Origin: Acidimicrobiia bacterium
Lineage (GTDB): Bacteria > Actinomycetota > Acidimicrobiia > Spongiisociales > ZC4RG35
DNA: 64,000 nt
NCBI GenBank assembly: GCA_965215185.1
Contig: OZ244034.1
Coordinates: forward strand, 1,024,001-1,088,000
Direction of reading: 5' to 3'
In this document: positions 24,559-34,601 of the stretch, in pieces
Layout: the number at the start of each line of letters is the position of its first letter
Position numbering within the stretch: position 1 is the stretch's first letter
Made by a program: the position numbers and the translations under genes
The notes under the pieces: generated by a model
What the model saw: only the letters and a program-made list of their open reading frames with translations
The model's database searches: none
What the model was told of the DNA's origin: nothing

Positions 24559-25806
24559 TTATCTTTGATGGGTGATCTCGTCGGTGGGTTGGGCTGGGGA
24601 GACGGCGGTTGCGATGTAAGAATCGATGTTCTCGTCGAACCGCTCGGAAGCCATGAAATTGACCGAATCTATAGCCTCGACGTGAACGAATGCCTCATCC
24701 AGGAACCGCACTTTACGTTGGAGAGTCTTCTGCACAACTTCTCCAACGGTATGGCCGTCTCCCACTGAGAGTCTCGAGTCGACGCCGATCGAGATGTCGG
24801 AGCGGACACGGTGCCCCATCCACCTCACCTGGCAACTGTTGACGCTGAGCACCCCTTTGACCGAGATCGCGACGCTTTCGATCTCGTCAACCAACTCCGG
24901 CTGGACGGCGTCCATGAGTCGTCCGTAGATGTCACGCGCCGCCGACCACATGACGCGCAGGATCACGATACCCACGATGATGCCTGCGATTGGGTCGGCA
25001 CGTTCAAAGCCCAGCCAAACACCGACCGCACTGGCGGCCACCGCCAACGAAGTGAACCCGTCAGCACGGGCATGACGTCCGTCGGCGATGAGAGCTGCCG
25101 AACCGATCGCCCTCCCGACGCGAATGCGATATAGGGCTACCAGTTCATTGCCGAGAAAACCCACTACTCCAGCGCCAAAGAGCACACCGAGGTGTTCGAG
25201 TTCGCGTGGATTGAAGAGCCGATCAATCGACTCCCAGAGAACCACGACCGCCGATATGAGGATCATCAACACCACAAAAAGCCCGGCAAGATCCTCCGCT
25301 CGGCGATACCCGTAGGTGTAGCGACGGGTCGCTGCCCTCCTCCCCATCCGAAACGCTATGAATAGAGGCACAGCGGTGAGTGCGTCCGAGAAGTTGTGAA
25401 TGGTATCAGCGATCAGGGACACCGAACCGGTGATCAAGACAATCCACGCCTGGATCACCGCGGTCACCATCAATACGGAGAACGAGATAATGAGCGCCCG
25501 GATACCCCGAGCGCTGCTTTCAAGGGCGCTGTCGATTGACTCGGCAGGGTCATGTGAGTGCATTCCGAACAACTCGCTCAATCCATGCTTGATCCCCGAC
25601 CAAAGCGAGTTTTTGGAGTCATGGCTGTGAGGGTGATCATGCCCGTGGCTATCTGCATGGGAATGTGACGACTTCGGGCCGGACTCGCCTAGGGAATGTG
25701 CGTGTGGCTTTTCCTCCGACCCGTTGTCCTTAGCGGACGGGGCGAATAGACCTCCCCCTGATTGAGGGTCGGTGTCGTGTTGGTGATCTGATCCCGTATC
25801 TTCCAC
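24559..25806 (-). CDS. cation diffusion facilitator transporter with His-rich N-terminus
   Basis: SVSLIADTIHNFSD, YTYGYRRAE, ADGRHARAD; HSHADSHGHDHPHSHD tract. Confidence 0.92.
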   Translation of the reverse strand: MEDTGSDHQHDTDPQSGGGLFAPSAKDNGSEEKPHAHSLGESGPKSSHSHADSHGHDHPHSHDSKNSLWSGIKHGLSELFGMHSHDPAESIDSALESSARGIRALIISFSVLMVTAVIQAWIVLITGSVSLIADTIHNFSDALTAVPLFIAFRMGRRAATRRYTYGYRRAEDLAGLFVVLMILISAVVVLWESIDRLFNPRELEHLGVLFGAGVVGFLGNELVALYRIRVGRAIGSAALIADGRHARADGFTSLAVAASAVGVWLGFERADPIAGIIVGIVILRVMWSAARDIYGRLMDAVQPELVDEIESVAISVKGVLSVNSCQVRWMGHRVRSDISIGVDSRLSVGDGHTVGEVVQKTLQRKVRFLDEAFVHVEAIDSVNFMASERFDENIDSYIATAVSPAQPTDEITHQR

Positions 25807-28935: not shown

Positions 28936-29985
28936 ATGGTGACGATCGATACCGTCGAGGCGAACATAGCTGCCATGCACAGACGGCTGGAAGAAGGTCA
29001 AATCAGCCTTCGCCCGCACATCAAGGTGCATCGCATCCCTGAGCTTGGTCGGATGCAGGCTTCGGCGCGTGCCATGGGTATCGCCTGCCAAACCCTTGAT
29101 GAAGTAGAGACCATGGTCGGAGCAGGTTTTGGCGAGATTCTGCTTACCAACTCGCTCGTGGACCGCAAGAAGCTGAGCCGTTTTGTGGGACTGATGTCTC
29201 AGGCGACTTTGGCGATCACCGCAGATTCAGACGAAGCCATCCAAGAATTATCCGCGGTTGCCAGAATCACAGGCCAGAAGGTCTCTGTGTACGTCGAGTG
29301 CGACATCGGGGGCGCTCGCACAGGTTTCGCTGACCCGAGCCTGGCCGCCGCGCTTGCTATCAACATCGCGCAATCGCCGACCCTCAAGTTCGCCGGGCTT
29401 GCCGGTTACCTGGGTGGCAATCCGAATTGCTCCGATATTGACAGCAGCGAGGCGATGCTTGCAGAAGTCGTGTCCCAACTCTCCCGCGCCGGAATCGCTG
29501 TCCCTGCGGTGAGCGTCGGAGGAACGGTGTTTACGATGCGCGCCTGGCCGAACTGTCCGCCGAACACTGTCACGGAAGCCCGACCCGGCAACTACTCGTT
29601 CTACGACGCCACCAAAGTTGAGTACGGACTGGTGACCTATGAAGATTGTGCATTGCGCGTTGTAAGCACCGTTGTTAGTCGGCCGAACCCTACCCGCGCG
29701 GTGCTCGACGCTGGATGGAGGATCCTTTCGAACAACGAGATTCCTAACCAGTCCACCTACGGGCACATCTTGGAGTACCCGCAAGCCCGAGTCATGCGCC
29801 TCTACACGGAGCACGCAGTGGTCGAGCTCCCAGACGGTGGTGAGCAGCCTCGCATTGGAGACCTTGTCACCATAGTCCCGAACTCCTGCGACGGGGTCCT
29901 TGCTTCAGCCAACACGCTGTATGGAATCCGGGGCGATCAAATCGAACAGGCGTGGCGCCTACGTGAGCAGGCGGTTCTGAAATGA
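28936..29985 (+). CDS. fold-type III PLP enzyme (D-threonine aldolase / D-serine dehydratase family)
   Basis: RPHIK, VECDIGGARTG, EARPGNYSFYD, CALRVVSTVVS, LDAG, EH; true start may be upstream (~28903). Confidence 0.85.
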   Translation: MVTIDTVEANIAAMHRRLEEGQISLRPHIKVHRIPELGRMQASARAMGIACQTLDEVETMVGAGFGEILLTNSLVDRKKLSRFVGLMSQATLAITADSDEAIQELSAVARITGQKVSVYVECDIGGARTGFADPSLAAALAINIAQSPTLKFAGLAGYLGGNPNCSDIDSSEAMLAEVVSQLSRAGIAVPAVSVGGTVFTMRAWPNCPPNTVTEARPGNYSFYDATKVEYGLVTYEDCALRVVSTVVSRPNPTRAVLDAGWRILSNNEIPNQSTYGHILEYPQARVMRLYTEHAVVELPDGGEQPRIGDLVTIVPNSCDGVLASANTLYGIRGDQIEQAWRLREQAVLK

Positions 29986-30537
29986 TTTCGCCGTACACGA
30001 ACGAGCACTTCCACTGAGTCCACGGTTTTGTTGCTCTTCATCGGATTTCATTCCATATCGGCCTAGCATTGTCCCCCAAATTCAAGGCAGCAGTCGGTTG
30101 GTCGATCCATCAATATGGGGCCACGGTGTGAAAGACCTTTCCTAAGGAGGCAACATCCACCCATAGTGGAAATCAGATAGCTGACGCCTTCTGCCACAAC
30201 CCCTGCACCAAGAAGTTGACCGGTGTGGCGCGCAGGTTCAATAAGGTTCAAAAATGAGGCACACGCGTCCATGTGTAACTCGACGGCACCGGGCCTGCAA
30301 TCATTCTGACCTGAGACGAGCAAGACATTGATCGCCGGACTTTACACGTGTGTTGGTGAGGGTATTGCTTAGAACACCGAGTGATAGACGCTAACGAAGT
30401 GTGTCGTTCAGCTACCACAGCGGCAAGCGTTCTATCTGAGAACAACCAAAGTAAAAAAACGACACGCAGGGCCTAAGTGGGTATTCTCTAAGCTGGTAAA
30501 TCCGCCTAGCGGAATTCGCTAACTGAAGGGAGTAAGA

Positions 30538-30648
30538 ATGGCAGGACACGACCCGCATGAATGTGACGGCCATGAGCATCATGGGGACGAGCCCGGGCAT
30601 ATGCACGACGACCACGAGTGTGACGGGCACGAACACCACGGACACTAG
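30538..30648 (+). CDS. 36-aa His/Cys/acidic repeat peptide, putative metal-binding (absent from ORF track)
   Basis: MAGHDPHECDGHEHHGDEPGHMHDDHECDGHEHHGH; SD GAAGGGAG; duplicated HECDGHEHHG differing only at synonymous sites; hairpin follows. Confidence 0.8.
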   Translation: MAGHDPHECDGHEHHGDEPGHMHDDHECDGHEHHGH

Positions 30649-30663
30649 CCCTATTTAAACCTA

Positions 30664-30700
30664 AGAGAGGACCCGCTGTCGAGAACAGGGGGTCCTCTCT
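30664..30700. terminator. probable bidirectional terminator
   Basis: AGAGAGGACCC...GGGTCCTCTCT 11-bp stem plus inner CTGT/ACAG, between convergent peptide and CDF genes. Confidence 0.7.
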
Positions 30701-30791
30701 ATTTAGCCGCTGTACGCGAAGACACCAGGTTCTTGCCTACTAGGAACGGTCAGGCAAGCCTGTTTTGGCGAGGTTGTGGAGTGGGTTTGGT

Positions 30792-31799
30792 TTAACCCAG
30801 AGGCTTGGAACGCGCAATCAGGTGCTCGACGTGATGGTCCTCAACACAACCTTCGAGTGTCTCCTCGATCTGTAGTGTCACGTGATCAATTTTGTATTTG
30901 TGATGGATAACTTCCGTCAGGTCACGTAACAGTCGCTCCCGGTCTCCCGTGTAGGACGGGTCAATCAAAATGTGGGCAGTGCAGGCCTCGAGACCCGAGG
31001 AAATGGTCCAGACATGGATATCGTGGATCAAGGTAACCCCTTCCACGTCTTCGATGTCACTGCAAAGCCGATAAACGTCTATGTGATCCGGTACTCCTTC
31101 CAGAAGTACCTTGAACACCTTGATGGTCAAGCGCCAAGAGCTGTGACCGACCAGCAGAGCAATCACCACGCTCAGGATGGGATCAACGATGGTCCATCCC
31201 AAAGTGACTATGAGGACACCGGAAATCACCAACCCAACCGACCCGAACAAGTCGGCCATAACATGTCGCAATGCTCCTTCGACATTCATGCTGTGCTTTG
31301 ATGAGCGGTGTAGCACCCAGGCGGCGGCCACATTTACCAACAGACCGAGGGTGCCGATCACTAGCATCAGGCCGCCTTCAATTTCGGGAACATCCTGGAT
31401 ACGGTGATACGCCTCGAACAGCACCCAGGCAGCTATCAACCAGAGGCTTAGAGCATTCAACATCGCTGCCAACACTTCGGCGCGGCGATATCCGAAGGTG
31501 CGTTCCGCAGAAGGGGGGCGTTCGGCCACATTCATGGCGAACAAAGCCAAAGCGAGTGACATCGCATCGGTGATCATGTGTCCCGCGTCCGACAACAATG
31601 CCAGGCTGCCGGACACCACCCCGCCGACTACCTCAGCCAGCATGAATCCCGTAATCAAGATCAGGGCGATGGTCAGGCTGCGTTTACTGGCTCCCCGCAG
31701 ATCATGTGAGTGATGATGACCGTGGTGGTCGTGGCTGGAGTGATTCTCGTGGTCGTGGTTCTCGTGGCTGGCGTGAGGATGAGAGTGTGGCTGTGTCAT
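30792..31799 (-). CDS. czcD: Zn/Co/Cd CDF exporter (CzcD/ZitB type) with His-rich N-terminus
   Basis: SLALLSDAGHMITD, RTFGYRRAEVLAA, NVEGALRHVMAD, HDIHVW, HVTLQIE; ATG 31799 preferred. Confidence 0.9.
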   Translation of the reverse strand: MTQPHSHPHASHENHDHENHSSHDHHGHHHSHDLRGASKRSLTIALILITGFMLAEVVGGVVSGSLALLSDAGHMITDAMSLALALFAMNVAERPPSAERTFGYRRAEVLAAMLNALSLWLIAAWVLFEAYHRIQDVPEIEGGLMLVIGTLGLLVNVAAAWVLHRSSKHSMNVEGALRHVMADLFGSVGLVISGVLIVTLGWTIVDPILSVVIALLVGHSSWRLTIKVFKVLLEGVPDHIDVYRLCSDIEDVEGVTLIHDIHVWTISSGLEACTAHILIDPSYTGDRERLLRDLTEVIHHKYKIDHVTLQIEETLEGCVEDHHVEHLIARSKPLG

Positions 31800-32198
31800 T
31801 TGTTGCGCATCATCGTAGCACTTGGCAACGCCGCGACAGGGTCTATCTGGCAACGCTCCGCCATGACTTCTGGCAGAAGATCGCATTTGCCTATTTGGGG
31901 CCACTTAACCTTTAAACAAGTGCGGGAGGTTATTTGATTAACAGGTGTTTCGGGAGGCTATTTGACAATGCCTATCAGTACAACCGCTGCCGAGGAGCGA
32001 TCATCGCAGCCGGGGCATCGTAGACGTCGATTTCTCCCTGGGCGGCACCACGGGGATGGGGTTGAGACCATCGAGGGCACGCTGGCCGATCTAACTGAGG
32101 TGGTTATCCGATCGTGCTGCTGACACAATGGTCAGTGTTTTCAATGAGCTTGCCCCAGAAGGCGACATGCTGTTGAAGGGTGGGTAGCTGTTCTGTAC

Positions 32199-32654: not shown

Positions 32655-32990
32655 ATGGACGTTACCAGCCAGCGCACAGATGCGGCGTTGATTGTTTCGG
32701 CCGAGGGTCGAGTCGATGGCGCCAATGCCCGCAAATTCCAAAAGGCTGTGGAGAATGTCATCAACGATGGCGACCGCGCCGTAGTCCTGGATATGGCAGG
32801 CCTGAACTACATCAGCAGCGCCGGCCTCCGCTCGATACTGCTCATCGCCAAGGGGCTTCAAAAGCGGAACTCTCAGTTCGCGGTGTGCTCGCTGCAGGAT
32901 CCCATCCGTGAGGTCTTCCGGATCGTCGGTTTCGACAAGATCGTGTCAATCTACGATTCGCAAGGTGAGGCAATCGACTCCCTCAGCTGA
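32655..32990 (+). CDS. STAS-domain anti-sigma-factor antagonist (RsbV/SpoIIAA-like)
   Basis: VVLDMAGLNYISSAGLR phosphoacceptor motif. Confidence 0.92.
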   Translation: MDVTSQRTDAALIVSAEGRVDGANARKFQKAVENVINDGDRAVVLDMAGLNYISSAGLRSILLIAKGLQKRNSQFAVCSLQDPIREVFRIVGFDKIVSIYDSQGEAIDSLS

Positions 32991-33013
32991 CAGTCAACAC
33001 AGGCGGCAAGACA

Positions 33014-34174
33014 GTGAACCGTCCACACAAGATCCTGGTTGTAGATGACGAGCCGGATCTTGAGCCGCTCATGCTCCAACGTATGCGCCGCCATATTCGA
33101 AAGGGCCTGTACACCTTTGTCTTCGCCCGCAATGGTGTGGAGGCTCTTGAAAAACTGAACGCGGATAAAGACATCGACATGGTGCTCTCCGATATCAACA
33201 TGCCTCAGATGGACGGGCTAACCCTGCTTGAACAGATCCCCAAGGTTGCCCCCAACATTCGAGCAGTGATTATCTCCGCATACGGAGATATGAAGAATAT
33301 CCGCACGGCTATGAACCGCGGCGCCTTTGACTTCATCACCAAACCCGTGGACTTCAAGGATCTGCAGATCACCATCGAAAGAACCCTGACGCACATGAAG
33401 GAATGGCGAAAGGCCCTTTCCTACCGGGACAAACTGGTTTCCATACAAAACGAGCTGGAGGTCGCCAGCCGCATTCAGCAATCCATTCTGCCGTCGGAAT
33501 TTCCCGAGGATCCCCGTTTTCAGGTGTTCGGCAACATGGAGCCGGCTCGGGATGTCGGGGGCGATTTCTTCGATATTCTGGACATTGACGGAGATCGCCT
33601 CGGCTTGGCCATTGCCGACGTCTCCGACAAAGGCGTACCAGCCGCGCTCTTCATGATGTCCTGTCGCACACTCTTGAAAGGGGTTGCCATCGGCCTGTCC
33701 GAACCGGGACCGGTCCTAAAAGAGGTCAACGAAATATTGCACAACGACAATGAGACGTTCCTGTTCGTCACCGTACTCTACGCCGTGTATGACCCTTCCA
33801 ACGGGCTTTTCACCTACGCAAGCGGCGGGCATGACGCGCCTCTGTTGGTCCGCGCCGACGGGACCGCCAGCCTCCTACCTCTTACCGGCGGCATAGCTTT
33901 GGGAGTGGTGCCTTCTTGGGAATTCGAACAGAAGACCATCGTACTTGAGCCGGGGGACACCCTTGTTCTCTACACAGACGGGGTTACAGAGGCTCAAAAC
34001 ACCAGTGATCAAGCTTTTGAAGTTGCGGGACTACATAAAATTTTCTCGGGAACCCTTGCCTCCCTTAATGCCAAAGAAGCGACTAACACCGTATTTGAAA
34101 CTGTTAGGACCTTTATGGGAGAGGCTCCCCAGTTTGACGACATCACTTGCCTGACCCTTCATCGAGACAAATAG
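33014..34174 (+). CDS. response regulator fused to PP2C/SpoIIE phosphatase (RsbU-like)
   Basis: ILVVDDE, SDINMP, KP; VGGDFFD, ADVSDKG, LYTDGVTEA, DDIT. Confidence 0.93.
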   Translation: MNRPHKILVVDDEPDLEPLMLQRMRRHIRKGLYTFVFARNGVEALEKLNADKDIDMVLSDINMPQMDGLTLLEQIPKVAPNIRAVIISAYGDMKNIRTAMNRGAFDFITKPVDFKDLQITIERTLTHMKEWRKALSYRDKLVSIQNELEVASRIQQSILPSEFPEDPRFQVFGNMEPARDVGGDFFDILDIDGDRLGLAIADVSDKGVPAALFMMSCRTLLKGVAIGLSEPGPVLKEVNEILHNDNETFLFVTVLYAVYDPSNGLFTYASGGHDAPLLVRADGTASLLPLTGGIALGVVPSWEFEQKTIVLEPGDTLVLYTDGVTEAQNTSDQAFEVAGLHKIFSGTLASLNAKEATNTVFETVRTFMGEAPQFDDITCLTLHRDK

Positions 34175-34184
34175 GCGGGCCGTT

Positions 34185-34601
34185 TTGAAGATATCCAAAA
34201 TAATCAGGATGAACCCCGACACCGCGGCACTCGAGACGGTGTTCGCTGAGGTGGAAGGGTTTGCGATGGAGGCTGAATGGCCTGCCGACGCAGTTTTCCA
34301 GGTGAAACTGATTCTGGAGGAATTAGTTGTCAATGTTATCAACTACGGGGCTCCCGGTGGTACCACTCCCATCGACATCAAGCTACAGTCTGATGGAGAA
34401 ACCATAACCATCGAGATACAAGATGTTGGCCAGCCTTTTGATCCATTGAGAGATGCTCCCTCTCCTGACCTTTCGCTCGGGCTGGAAGAGCGGCCGATAG
34501 GTGGTCTAGGCCTTTACCTGGTACGTACCATGGTGGATGAGATGCACTACCGGTGGGAGGGCGGCTTTAATCACCTTACGTTGATCACCCGCAGAACTTG
34601 A
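34185..34601 (+). CDS. anti-sigma factor / Ser kinase (RsbW-like HATPase)
   Basis: EELVVNVINYG, IQDVGQPFDP, GGLGLYLV. Confidence 0.9.
   Translation: MKISKIIRMNPDTAALETVFAEVEGFAMEAEWPADAVFQVKLILEELVVNVINYGAPGGTTPIDIKLQSDGETITIEIQDVGQPFDPLRDAPSPDLSLGLEERPIGGLGLYLVRTMVDEMHYRWEGGFNHLTLITRRT

Follow-up and report, generated by a model that had tools for sequence, protein, structure and literature searches.

The locus studied here raises a plain question: is a 36-codon open reading frame, whose product would consist almost only of His, Asp, Glu, Cys, Gly, Ala and Pro, a gene, and what could such a product do next to a metal exporter? The sequence-only reading of the window (the whole stretch of 64,000 nucleotides that was analysed) had taken the product for a metal storage or chaperone peptide. 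The question touches on a wider one, as a passage of a 2024 review (PMC11672702) describes the make-up of the cytosolic zinc buffer as not known and histidine as implicated in it. The computational evidence presented below lends support to a storage or chaperone role through selection on the peptide, a conserved family and metal-transporter partners. We consider it fairly probable that the frame is a real gene whose product is a cytosolic divalent-metal (probably Zn) buffer or donor coupled to a CDF exporter.

The open reading frame and its two motif copies

The frame starts with the ATG at 30538 and stops with the TAG at 30646-30648, as given by reading of the sequence and by the ORF list (Table 1). 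Its 36-residue product, MAGHDPHECDGHEHHGDEPGHMHDDHECDGHEHHGH, contains, by hand count, 12 His, 2 Cys and 11 Asp or Glu residues and no Lys or Arg. At the position of the Shine-Dalgarno-like element, an alignment of 11 relatives shows GGAAGGAG or GAAAGG; the start codon and a GGAGG-type site are aligned in 12 of 12 sequences, which keep an intact start, stop and Shine-Dalgarno site. The frame, its composition and its own ribosome-binding site are therefore as originally described.

Table 1. Features of the peptide locus in window coordinates
Feature	Position	Strand	Basis or remark
His/Cys repeat microprotein gene, 36 codons, 2 HECDxHEHH motifs	30538..30648, stop included	+	ORF list
Shine-Dalgarno-like element GAAGGGAG	30526..30533	+	4 nt 5' of ATG; sequence reading
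Motif copy 1, HECDGHEHHG	30556..30585	+	Reading, codon count, genome motif scan
Motif copy 2, HECDGHEHHG	30613..30642	+	8/10 codons are synonymous variants of copy 1
Hairpin with 16-bp arms, probable bidirectional terminator	30664..30700	.	Between two convergent genes; repeat search and folding
CDF (CzcD/ZitB-like) exporter with His/Asp-rich N-tail	30792..31904	-	ORF list, Pfam, NCBIfam

The initial reading had also stressed that one decapeptide occurs twice, with 8 of 10 codons differing and every difference synonymous, and had taken this as a sign of selection on the peptide. Nei-Gojobori counting of copy 1 against copy 2 confirms the observation (S = 4.67, N = 25.33, Sd = 8, Nd = 0), and under a crude model of random placement the chance that all 8 differences would be synonymous is ~(4.67/30)^8, or ~3e-7. 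About 5.5 differing codons are expected at saturated synonymous sites, and the 8 of 10 observed are compatible with saturation. Since the differences fit saturated sites, the codon count points to a duplication that is old and has been strictly constrained rather than to selection for divergent codons. A motif scan of the entire 3.12-Mb genome finds the pattern only at these two sites.

Selection is also visible between genomes. A six-frame search of 40 relatives recovered orthologs of the peptide, 78-85% identical, in 11 congeners and in G033, a genome of another family of the same order. For the 12 orthologs of genus and order (32 aligned codons, 66 pairs), the mean pN is 0.063, the mean pS is 0.63 and the ratio is 0.10, with synonymous sites saturated between the window and the other orthologs; together with the synonymous-only copies, this bears out the proposed selection on the peptide. 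No RNA run is among the public sequencing runs listed as containing the locus. In the contigs of four public runs, which break inside the repeat and say nothing on expression, the coding sequence varies only at a synonymous Gly third position (30642) and by an A>C at 30538 that occurs in one short contig only, and the 240 nt upstream of it contain 11 variant sites. By these comparisons, the 36-codon frame is a real, strongly conserved gene under purifying selection.

Two other frames, the 77-aa ORF on the minus strand (30412..30645) and the +2 frame, were considered as carriers of the signal; the pattern of variation and selection is explained by neither. More generally, the locus might hold no gene at all, with the frame arising by chance, marking another frame or strand, or persisting as a decaying fragment of a CDF N-tail. 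We find this scarcely credible: although the frame is very short and of low complexity, has no family assignment and receives no fold from AlphaFold2, its divergence is synonymous-only in frame both within the gene and across 12 genomes, its start, stop and Shine-Dalgarno site are intact, stand-alone genes of its kind occur in more than 100 species, and the neighbouring CDF is complete with its tail.

The public contigs contain some further peculiarities. One contig set jumps from 30678 to 30790 with 75 other letters between. In runs X5-X7, 27-kb contigs of other organisms match ~41 nt of motif copy 2 (window 30605-30645), and short contigs of high depth do not reach the stop codon but continue beyond 30641 with another repeat unit. 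Because of these contigs with a further unit and the contigs of other organisms, the samples of runs X5-X7 are best described as mixtures in which longer variants or other carriers coexist.

Signals around the peptide gene

The terminator that had been assigned to the gene proved to be a strong hairpin past the stop codon with a weak U-tract. Its arms (30664-30679 and 30685-30700) are 94% complementary and enclose a 5-nt loop; the plus-strand fold reaches -29.2 kcal/mol (z -4.87), and none of 200 shuffles folds as well. The minus-strand fold, at -28.1 kcal/mol, is nearly as good, so the hairpin can probably end both convergent transcripts, that of the peptide gene and that of the CDF gene. A strict terminator scan passes over it, as its T-run amounts to no more than UAUUU.

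Upstream signals are few. A sigma-70 promoter scan gave no hit, and an Rfam scan of 29900-32100 at E ≤ 1 gave no RNA family and therefore no riboswitch of the NiCo/czcD type. The fold of the 5' UTR of the peptide gene is no better than that of shuffles (z -0.21). Comparison of the regions upstream of the peptide gene and of the CDF gene in the window found no common 11-mer (with up to one mismatch), palindrome or operator.

Upstream of the peptide gene in seven congeners (L002, L003, L006, L007, L008, L009 and L011), a palindrome of the form TGCAAAT-N7-GGTTTGCA (TGCAAA-N9-TTTGCA) occurs twice in tandem, ~100-170 nt from the gene (alignment A1, columns 60-165). The two copies overlap or run into a promoter-like TTGCAT...TACAAT pair, and the arrangement looks like a metalloregulator operator. 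The window, whose upstream gene differs, does not contain this tandem palindrome. Here, 550 nt without a recognisable gene (29986-30537) lie 5' of the peptide gene; they include an 86-aa minus-strand ORF (30063-30323) with no Pfam match, an 8-nt inverted repeat (30401-30408/30458-30465) and a direct repeat CTKAGAACA at 30368 and 30436.

A family of HECD-repeat proteins

An exact scan with the back-translated motif, run on one genome per species, found at least 122 motif stretches. The ORF set built from them, which omits 5 single chance-like matches and 4 Firmicutes loci, contains at least 110 distinct stand-alone proteins among the matches listed, each with 1-10 motifs and mostly with 4. In the 110 distinct proteins listed, 66 have 4 motifs, 16 have 2, 9 have 8, 6 have 6, 6 have 3, 4 have a single one, 2 have 10 and 1 has 9; the longest among the matches listed has 167 residues and 10 motifs. 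Their composition is extreme, with 34% His, 17.5% Glu and 15% Asp (Asp and Glu together 32%), 5.6% Cys, 0.5% Lys plus Arg and no aromatic residue. In the alignment of 65 four-motif proteins, a core unit HxHDxHECDxHEHH alternates with short variable linkers, 36 columns are invariant, and conservation is as strict for Glu, Cys and Asp as for His.

The window peptide, which consists of two such units, falls within this family: it carries the HxHDxHECDxHEHH unit, is far shorter than the ~170 residues that bound the family, keeps 21 of the 21 invariant columns of alignment A2 and matches the profile at E 4.7e-16. Family lengths of 36, 72 and ~135 residues fit the gain or loss of a 108-nt double unit. 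The 36-residue form occurs in 3 of the 12 genus genomes (G000, G001 and G005) and the 72-residue form in the other 9, and by this series the two-motif peptide of the window is a short version of a family that usually has four.

Outside this set, a profile search of 1.84 billion cluster representatives gave 30 clusters at E ≤ 0.001, all of 31-133 residues, a number from which the composition filters of HMMER may hide further clusters. A search with the 36 residues plus four in-frame upstream codons returned 11 homologues, none of the 11 with a source name. The sequence-only reading knew of no small bacterial metal buffer with this motif, and no library assigned a family: the window peptide has no Pfam match at E ≤ 0.1 and no NCBIfam match; the 72-, 132- and 167-residue relatives have nothing real in Pfam at E ≤ 1 (a JTB hit at E 0.13 is noise); the 72-residue relative has no match in a PDB sequence search at E ≤ 10; and the best ESM Atlas cluster, a 'hypothetical protein' at 0.77, lies below a meaningful level. 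A full-text literature search, taken from listings and abstracts, gave nothing on an HECD-repeat family, with the proviso that a family under a different name would be missed.

With regard to taxonomy, 58 of the 80 titled records listed are 'Dehalococcoidia bacterium' MAGs and 7 belong to other Chloroflexota; by title or taxonomy, 4 listed loci belong to Acidimicrobiia, among them Candidatus Spongiisociaceae. The proteins of L016, L064 and L089 are identical to those of the congeners G008, G001 and G013, respectively. In an even sample of the window's class, 2 of 301 genomes have profile matches (the window's own, G000, and G033), against 41 of 401 in the class of a Dehalococcoidia-titled genome. 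Therefore, the family has a scattered occurrence in the window's class and is more frequent in Dehalococcoidia.

The convergent CDF exporter and its link to the peptide

The exporter on which the peptide gene had been said to converge is indeed a CDF protein on the opposite strand. Its probable start is the ATG at 31799 (MTQPHSH...), and it matches Cation_efflux (1.9e-42) and ZT_dimer (6.8e-11) in Pfam and TIGR01297 (1.7e-79) in NCBIfam. The closest equivalog model is ZitB, with 260 bits, below the cut-off of 408. HxxxD sequences stand in TM2 (HMITD) and TM5 (HVMAD). The stop codons of the two genes are 143 nt apart and, because the genes are convergent, they do not form one transcript.

Flanks were available for 80 loci of the motif scan, 72 of them with full flanks, among the matches listed. 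A full-length CDF gene adjoins the peptide gene in 48 of these 72, always downstream or convergent, as in the window. Among the matches listed, the 48 comprise 28 loci in which the CDF is co-directional and directly downstream at a gap of 36-252 nt (median 159; L054 is excepted, as the start-codon rule gave an overlap), 17 convergent loci, 2 with a fused form only and 1 in which a fused CDF lies upstream of the small gene. Two more loci among the matches listed have only a partial CDF match. In the set of relatives, the window included, 10 of 12 loci have the CDF as a neighbour (9 in convergent and 1 in co-directional orientation), and the opposite flank is occupied by different genes: one for a YscW-like lipoprotein, for a short-chain dehydrogenase or for an ammonium transporter, and in the window a D-serine-dehydratase-like gene.

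In the 28 listed co-directional loci, the small gene directly precedes the CDF gene, with 36-252 nt between the two. This layout would suit a regulatory leader peptide, whose translation would respond to the supply of histidyl- or cysteinyl-tRNA or to metal and so govern the CDF gene behind it; leader peptides rich in His are indeed known, as in the his operon. We regard this as very improbable, however, given that the genes are convergent in the window, in 17 further listed loci and in 9 of the 12 loci of the relatives' set, that the products reach 167 residues and 10 motifs with Glu, Cys and Asp as invariant as His, and that the module is also found fused to the CDF protein itself.

This fusion is the second line of evidence for the coupling of the peptide to the exporter. 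In at least 7 genomes (G007, L031, L044, L054, L060, L065 and L133), a two-motif module stands in frame at the N-terminus of the CDF, where it precedes the usual (H-D/H-G) run of the N-tail; a free copy exists besides the fused one in G007, L031, L044 and L054. The window peptide and the CDF tail of G007 share 22 of 26 residues (E 5e-14). The sequence-only reading had allowed that the peptide might prove to be a detached His-rich tail of a larger protein. That suggestion holds in part, as the module is a CDF N-tail in some relatives. It fails for the window, where the gene has a start and a stop codon of its own on the other strand, is not continuous with the CDF membrane domain and adjoins a CDF that is complete with its own full His-rich N-tail. 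Because the window gene is independent and stand-alone genes occur in more than 100 species, the fusion links the function of the two and does not expose an artefact.

The third line is co-occurrence. Of the 17 genus genomes, the 12 that have the peptide, the window's own included, are also exactly those with a CDF ortholog (81-88% identity), a match that represents few independent events because the genus genomes are kin. G002, G004, G010 and G015 have no peptide and no CDF match at E ≤ 1e-40; G011 likewise lacks the peptide, and its CDF homologue reaches just 57%. CDFs of other families of the order are at most 41% identical to the window CDF (G027 39%, G038 34%). Among the matches listed, the peptide-linked CDFs of Dehalococcoidia-titled genomes are 56-64% identical to it and that of Spongiisociaceae 71%. 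This match of presence and absence and these identities across taxa suggest that the pair may be acquired and lost as a unit. Taking neighbourhood, fusion and co-occurrence together, the peptide is, as far as genome comparison goes, linked to the CDF by three independent kinds of evidence.

Some observations do not sit easily with a buffer or donor coupled to the exporter. No full-length CDF lies within 2.5 kb in 23 of the 72 listed loci; the two genes are far apart in G006 and G033; and in the window they are convergent and have no operator in common. In 7 of the 23 CDF-less loci (L037, L061, L062, L066, L071, L080 and L092, all of one Dehalococcoidia-titled lineage), the peptide gene stands in a conserved order NAD kinase-NUDIX-[peptide]-SdhA, with no obvious metal link and no transporter within 2.5 kb. 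The SdhA side is a succinate dehydrogenase/fumarate reductase flavoprotein gene, and L061 and L071 have one motif left.

Two other neighbours in the window are recorded here. A second CDF gene (24562-25806, minus strand; Cation_efflux and ZT_dimer, with a His-rich N-region) lies 5 kb off; its product shares just 25% of residues with the peptide-linked CDF and lacks the HECD motif. Just beyond the peptide-linked CDF, at 32655-34598 on the plus strand, is a partner-switching set of a STAS protein, a response-regulator-SpoIIE phosphatase and an HATPase_c_2 kinase. Such a set also adjoins the peptide gene in two CDF-less loci of Chloroflexota type (L027:195-2150 and L059:932-2173), and its presence could be chance or a regulatory link.

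Which metal

CzcD-type CDFs also move Co and Cd, and the His, Cys and carboxylate ligands of the peptide would also bind Ni, Co, Cd or Cu. Genomic context is somewhat more selective. The HxxxD pair of TM2 and TM5 is described as the Zn site of Zn-CDFs in a section of PMC10932157, where cytosolic His-rich loops of Zn transporters are likewise stated to recruit Zn to the membrane transport site. ABC-3, ZnuA and ABC ATPase genes flank the peptide gene in 10 listed loci (L010, L034, L035, L038, L048, L056, L058, L068, L082 and L085), in 5 of which (L010, L038, L058, L068 and L082) it follows the permease gene directly and on the same strand; in L034, a FUR-family gene is also near. Four Firmicutes CobW/COG0523 proteins (L014, L017, L024 and L079) carry the word HECDxHEHH, in 1-5 copies, in the His-rich linker between their domains; they are members of a GTPase family that the above review ties to zinc limitation (PMC11672702). 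On account of the HxxxD site, the ZitB best model, the Znu-type neighbours and the COG0523 word, zinc is our best guess; the context would narrow the metal towards Zn, with Co or Cd possible, and away from Cu. The homologues and neighbours that the sequence-only reading had called for were thus found, HECDGHEHHG-type proteins next to metal transporters, with CDF in 48 of 72 loci and Znu in 10 loci among the matches listed.

The Znu-type neighbours allow another view, in which the peptide is a zinc reserve or starvation helper that stores Zn or passes imported Zn on, together with ZnuABC under Zur, and in which the vicinity of a CDF gene reflects the clustering of zinc genes. The 10 listed loci, the 5 positions behind a permease gene, the FUR-family gene of L034 and the COG0523 linkers agree with it, and these neighbours suggest that certain members may be expressed under zinc shortage, not excess, which also weighs against coupling to an exporter as a general rule. 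Among the matches listed, however, adjacency to a CDF is far commoner (48 of 72 against 10 loci), and every fusion found joins the module to the exporter, none to a Znu protein; genomes of the genus that carry the peptide also carry one particular CDF subtype, and no Zur-box-like operator was identified in the window. We therefore hold a role in zinc shortage to be unlikely.

A peptide of the same kind could also serve another metal (Ni, Co, Cd or Cu) as a pure sink, like Hpn or a metallothionein, without hand-off to the CDF. Its His, Cys, Asp and Glu composition resembles that of nickel-binding His-rich proteins such as Hpn, CzcD-type CDFs move Co and Cd, and the window CDF gives a weaker match (3.5e-31) to the Co/Ni exporter model DmeF of NCBIfam. 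The two HxxxD sites, the ZitB-like best score and the Znu-type neighbours point to a Zn type instead, and a sink that never meets the pump would hardly account for the in-frame fusions to the exporter; we judge such a sink improbable. For the exporter-coupled buffer or donor that we prefer, it should be borne in mind that the metal is taken from context only.

Comparison with known systems

Small His-rich metal-binding proteins in general are an already known kind. SmtA and MymT (Cys-rich) and Hpn (His-rich) are small bacterial metal buffers, and Hpn and Hpn-2 of Helicobacter pylori are small cytosolic His-rich nickel-binding proteins. Hpn and Hpn-2 resemble the window peptide in being tiny, very His-rich, acidic, poor in Cys and foldless, and their part in buffering or trafficking of divalent metal is of the kind proposed here; Hpn takes up Ni(II) at several sites of each chain, in vitro as well as in vivo. 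The window peptide differs in having no long poly-His runs (its longest is HH) and no paired-Cys pentapeptides, with a single Cys in each HECD; in its strict 14-residue unit, repeated 1-10 times in the family; in its link to a CDF, whereas Hpn serves nickel supply for urease and hydrogenase; and in the phyla concerned. The library searches, in which no model matched, gave no sequence relationship to Hpn, and it is by these features that the two are set apart.

SmtA/BmtA (PF02069) and MymT are likewise small cytosolic metal sinks encoded near metal-resistance genes. SmtA/BmtA have about 9 Cys that form a Zn4 cluster, and such Cys-dominated clusters contrast with the 2 Cys and 12 His here; with 2 Cys in 36 residues and no Pfam family at E ≤ 0.1, the window peptide lies outside PF02069.

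The cytosolic His-rich tails and loops of CDF/ZnT/MTP proteins enter the comparison through the two-motif module, which forms part of a CDF N-tail in no fewer than 7 genomes. The window version is encoded apart from the CDF, on the other strand, and these CDFs otherwise have tails made of (H-D/H-G) runs that lack Cys, whereas the module has the fixed word HECDxHEHH. The COG0523 linkers of L014, L017, L024 and L079 (CobW/CobW_C) contain this word 1-5 times, but they belong to GTPases of ~380-410 residues, with an extra Cys (HECDCHEHHH) and another repeat spacing, and the window peptide has no cobW GTPase or CobW_C domain. Because the repeat spacing differs, convergence on a short metal-binding word seems likelier than common descent. 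The peptide does not belong with RiPP precursors either, and no radical SAM enzyme, cyclodehydratase, lanthionine synthetase or similar protein is found among the scanned neighbours (14, 73 and 75) or the 20 window ORFs.

A parallel in logic is offered by the CopZ/Atx1-type copper chaperones, which hand metal to P1B-ATPases with N-terminal metal-binding domains. In both cases, a free-standing, small, soluble copy of the exporter's N-terminal metal module is encoded beside the exporter. The chaperones have a ferredoxin-like fold, a CxxC motif, copper and a P1B-ATPase as partner, in contrast to a disordered repeat and a CDF here; hand-off is proven for CopZ and hypothesised here. To judge from its members, the HECD-repeat family is distinguished by its own strict repeat, its modular copy number and its free-or-fused relation to a CDF exporter.

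Structure and proposed mechanism

AlphaFold2 gives the 36-residue peptide a mean pLDDT of 54 and the 72-residue form one of 45, with almost no secondary structure. The models predict that the apo peptide is disordered, and such low values are as would be expected of a peptide that folds only on metal. A complex prediction with a CDF dimer, 4 Zn and the peptide, run without controls, scored 0.00, a value that weighs neither for nor against contact.

Based on the results presented above, we infer metal binding, the identity of the metal, a cytosolic location, buffering and hand-off in the following scheme. A cytosolic location would follow from the lack of hydrophobic stretches or residues and of a signal peptide. 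Each HxHDxHECDxHEHH unit would offer ~seven imidazoles, one thiolate and three carboxylates and chelate a divalent transition metal, probably Zn(II) and possibly Co(II), Cd(II) or Ni(II); the disordered peptide may become ordered only on metal. It would keep excess metal exchangeable and present it to the CDF pump, doing in trans the job that the His-rich N-tail of the exporter does in cis. The number of repeats would tune the capacity through gain and loss of 108-nt double units, with 2 here, 4 mostly and up to 10.

This locus illustrates well how synonymous-only divergence can establish that a microprotein gene is real. Trypsin would not cut the peptide because it has no Lys or Arg, which may help to explain why such peptides are overlooked in proteomics. 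With 36 residues, it is a simple and synthesisable test object, and the genomes offer natural experiments: free against fused modules, 2 to 10 repeats, and presence or absence that tracks one CDF subtype. To our knowledge, the CDF exporters have no described counterpart of CopZ, the soluble partner of copper pumps. A bolder proposal, which we put forward only tentatively and with more doubt than belief, is that the peptide is the first cytosolic metallochaperone for a CDF exporter: in a CopZ-like logic, it would be a free-standing copy of the N-terminal module of the pump, it would capture Zn(II) (or Co/Cd) from the cytosol and hand it to the pump with a capacity set by 2-10 units, and the pair would move as a unit between Chloroflexota and Actinomycetota that share a habitat.
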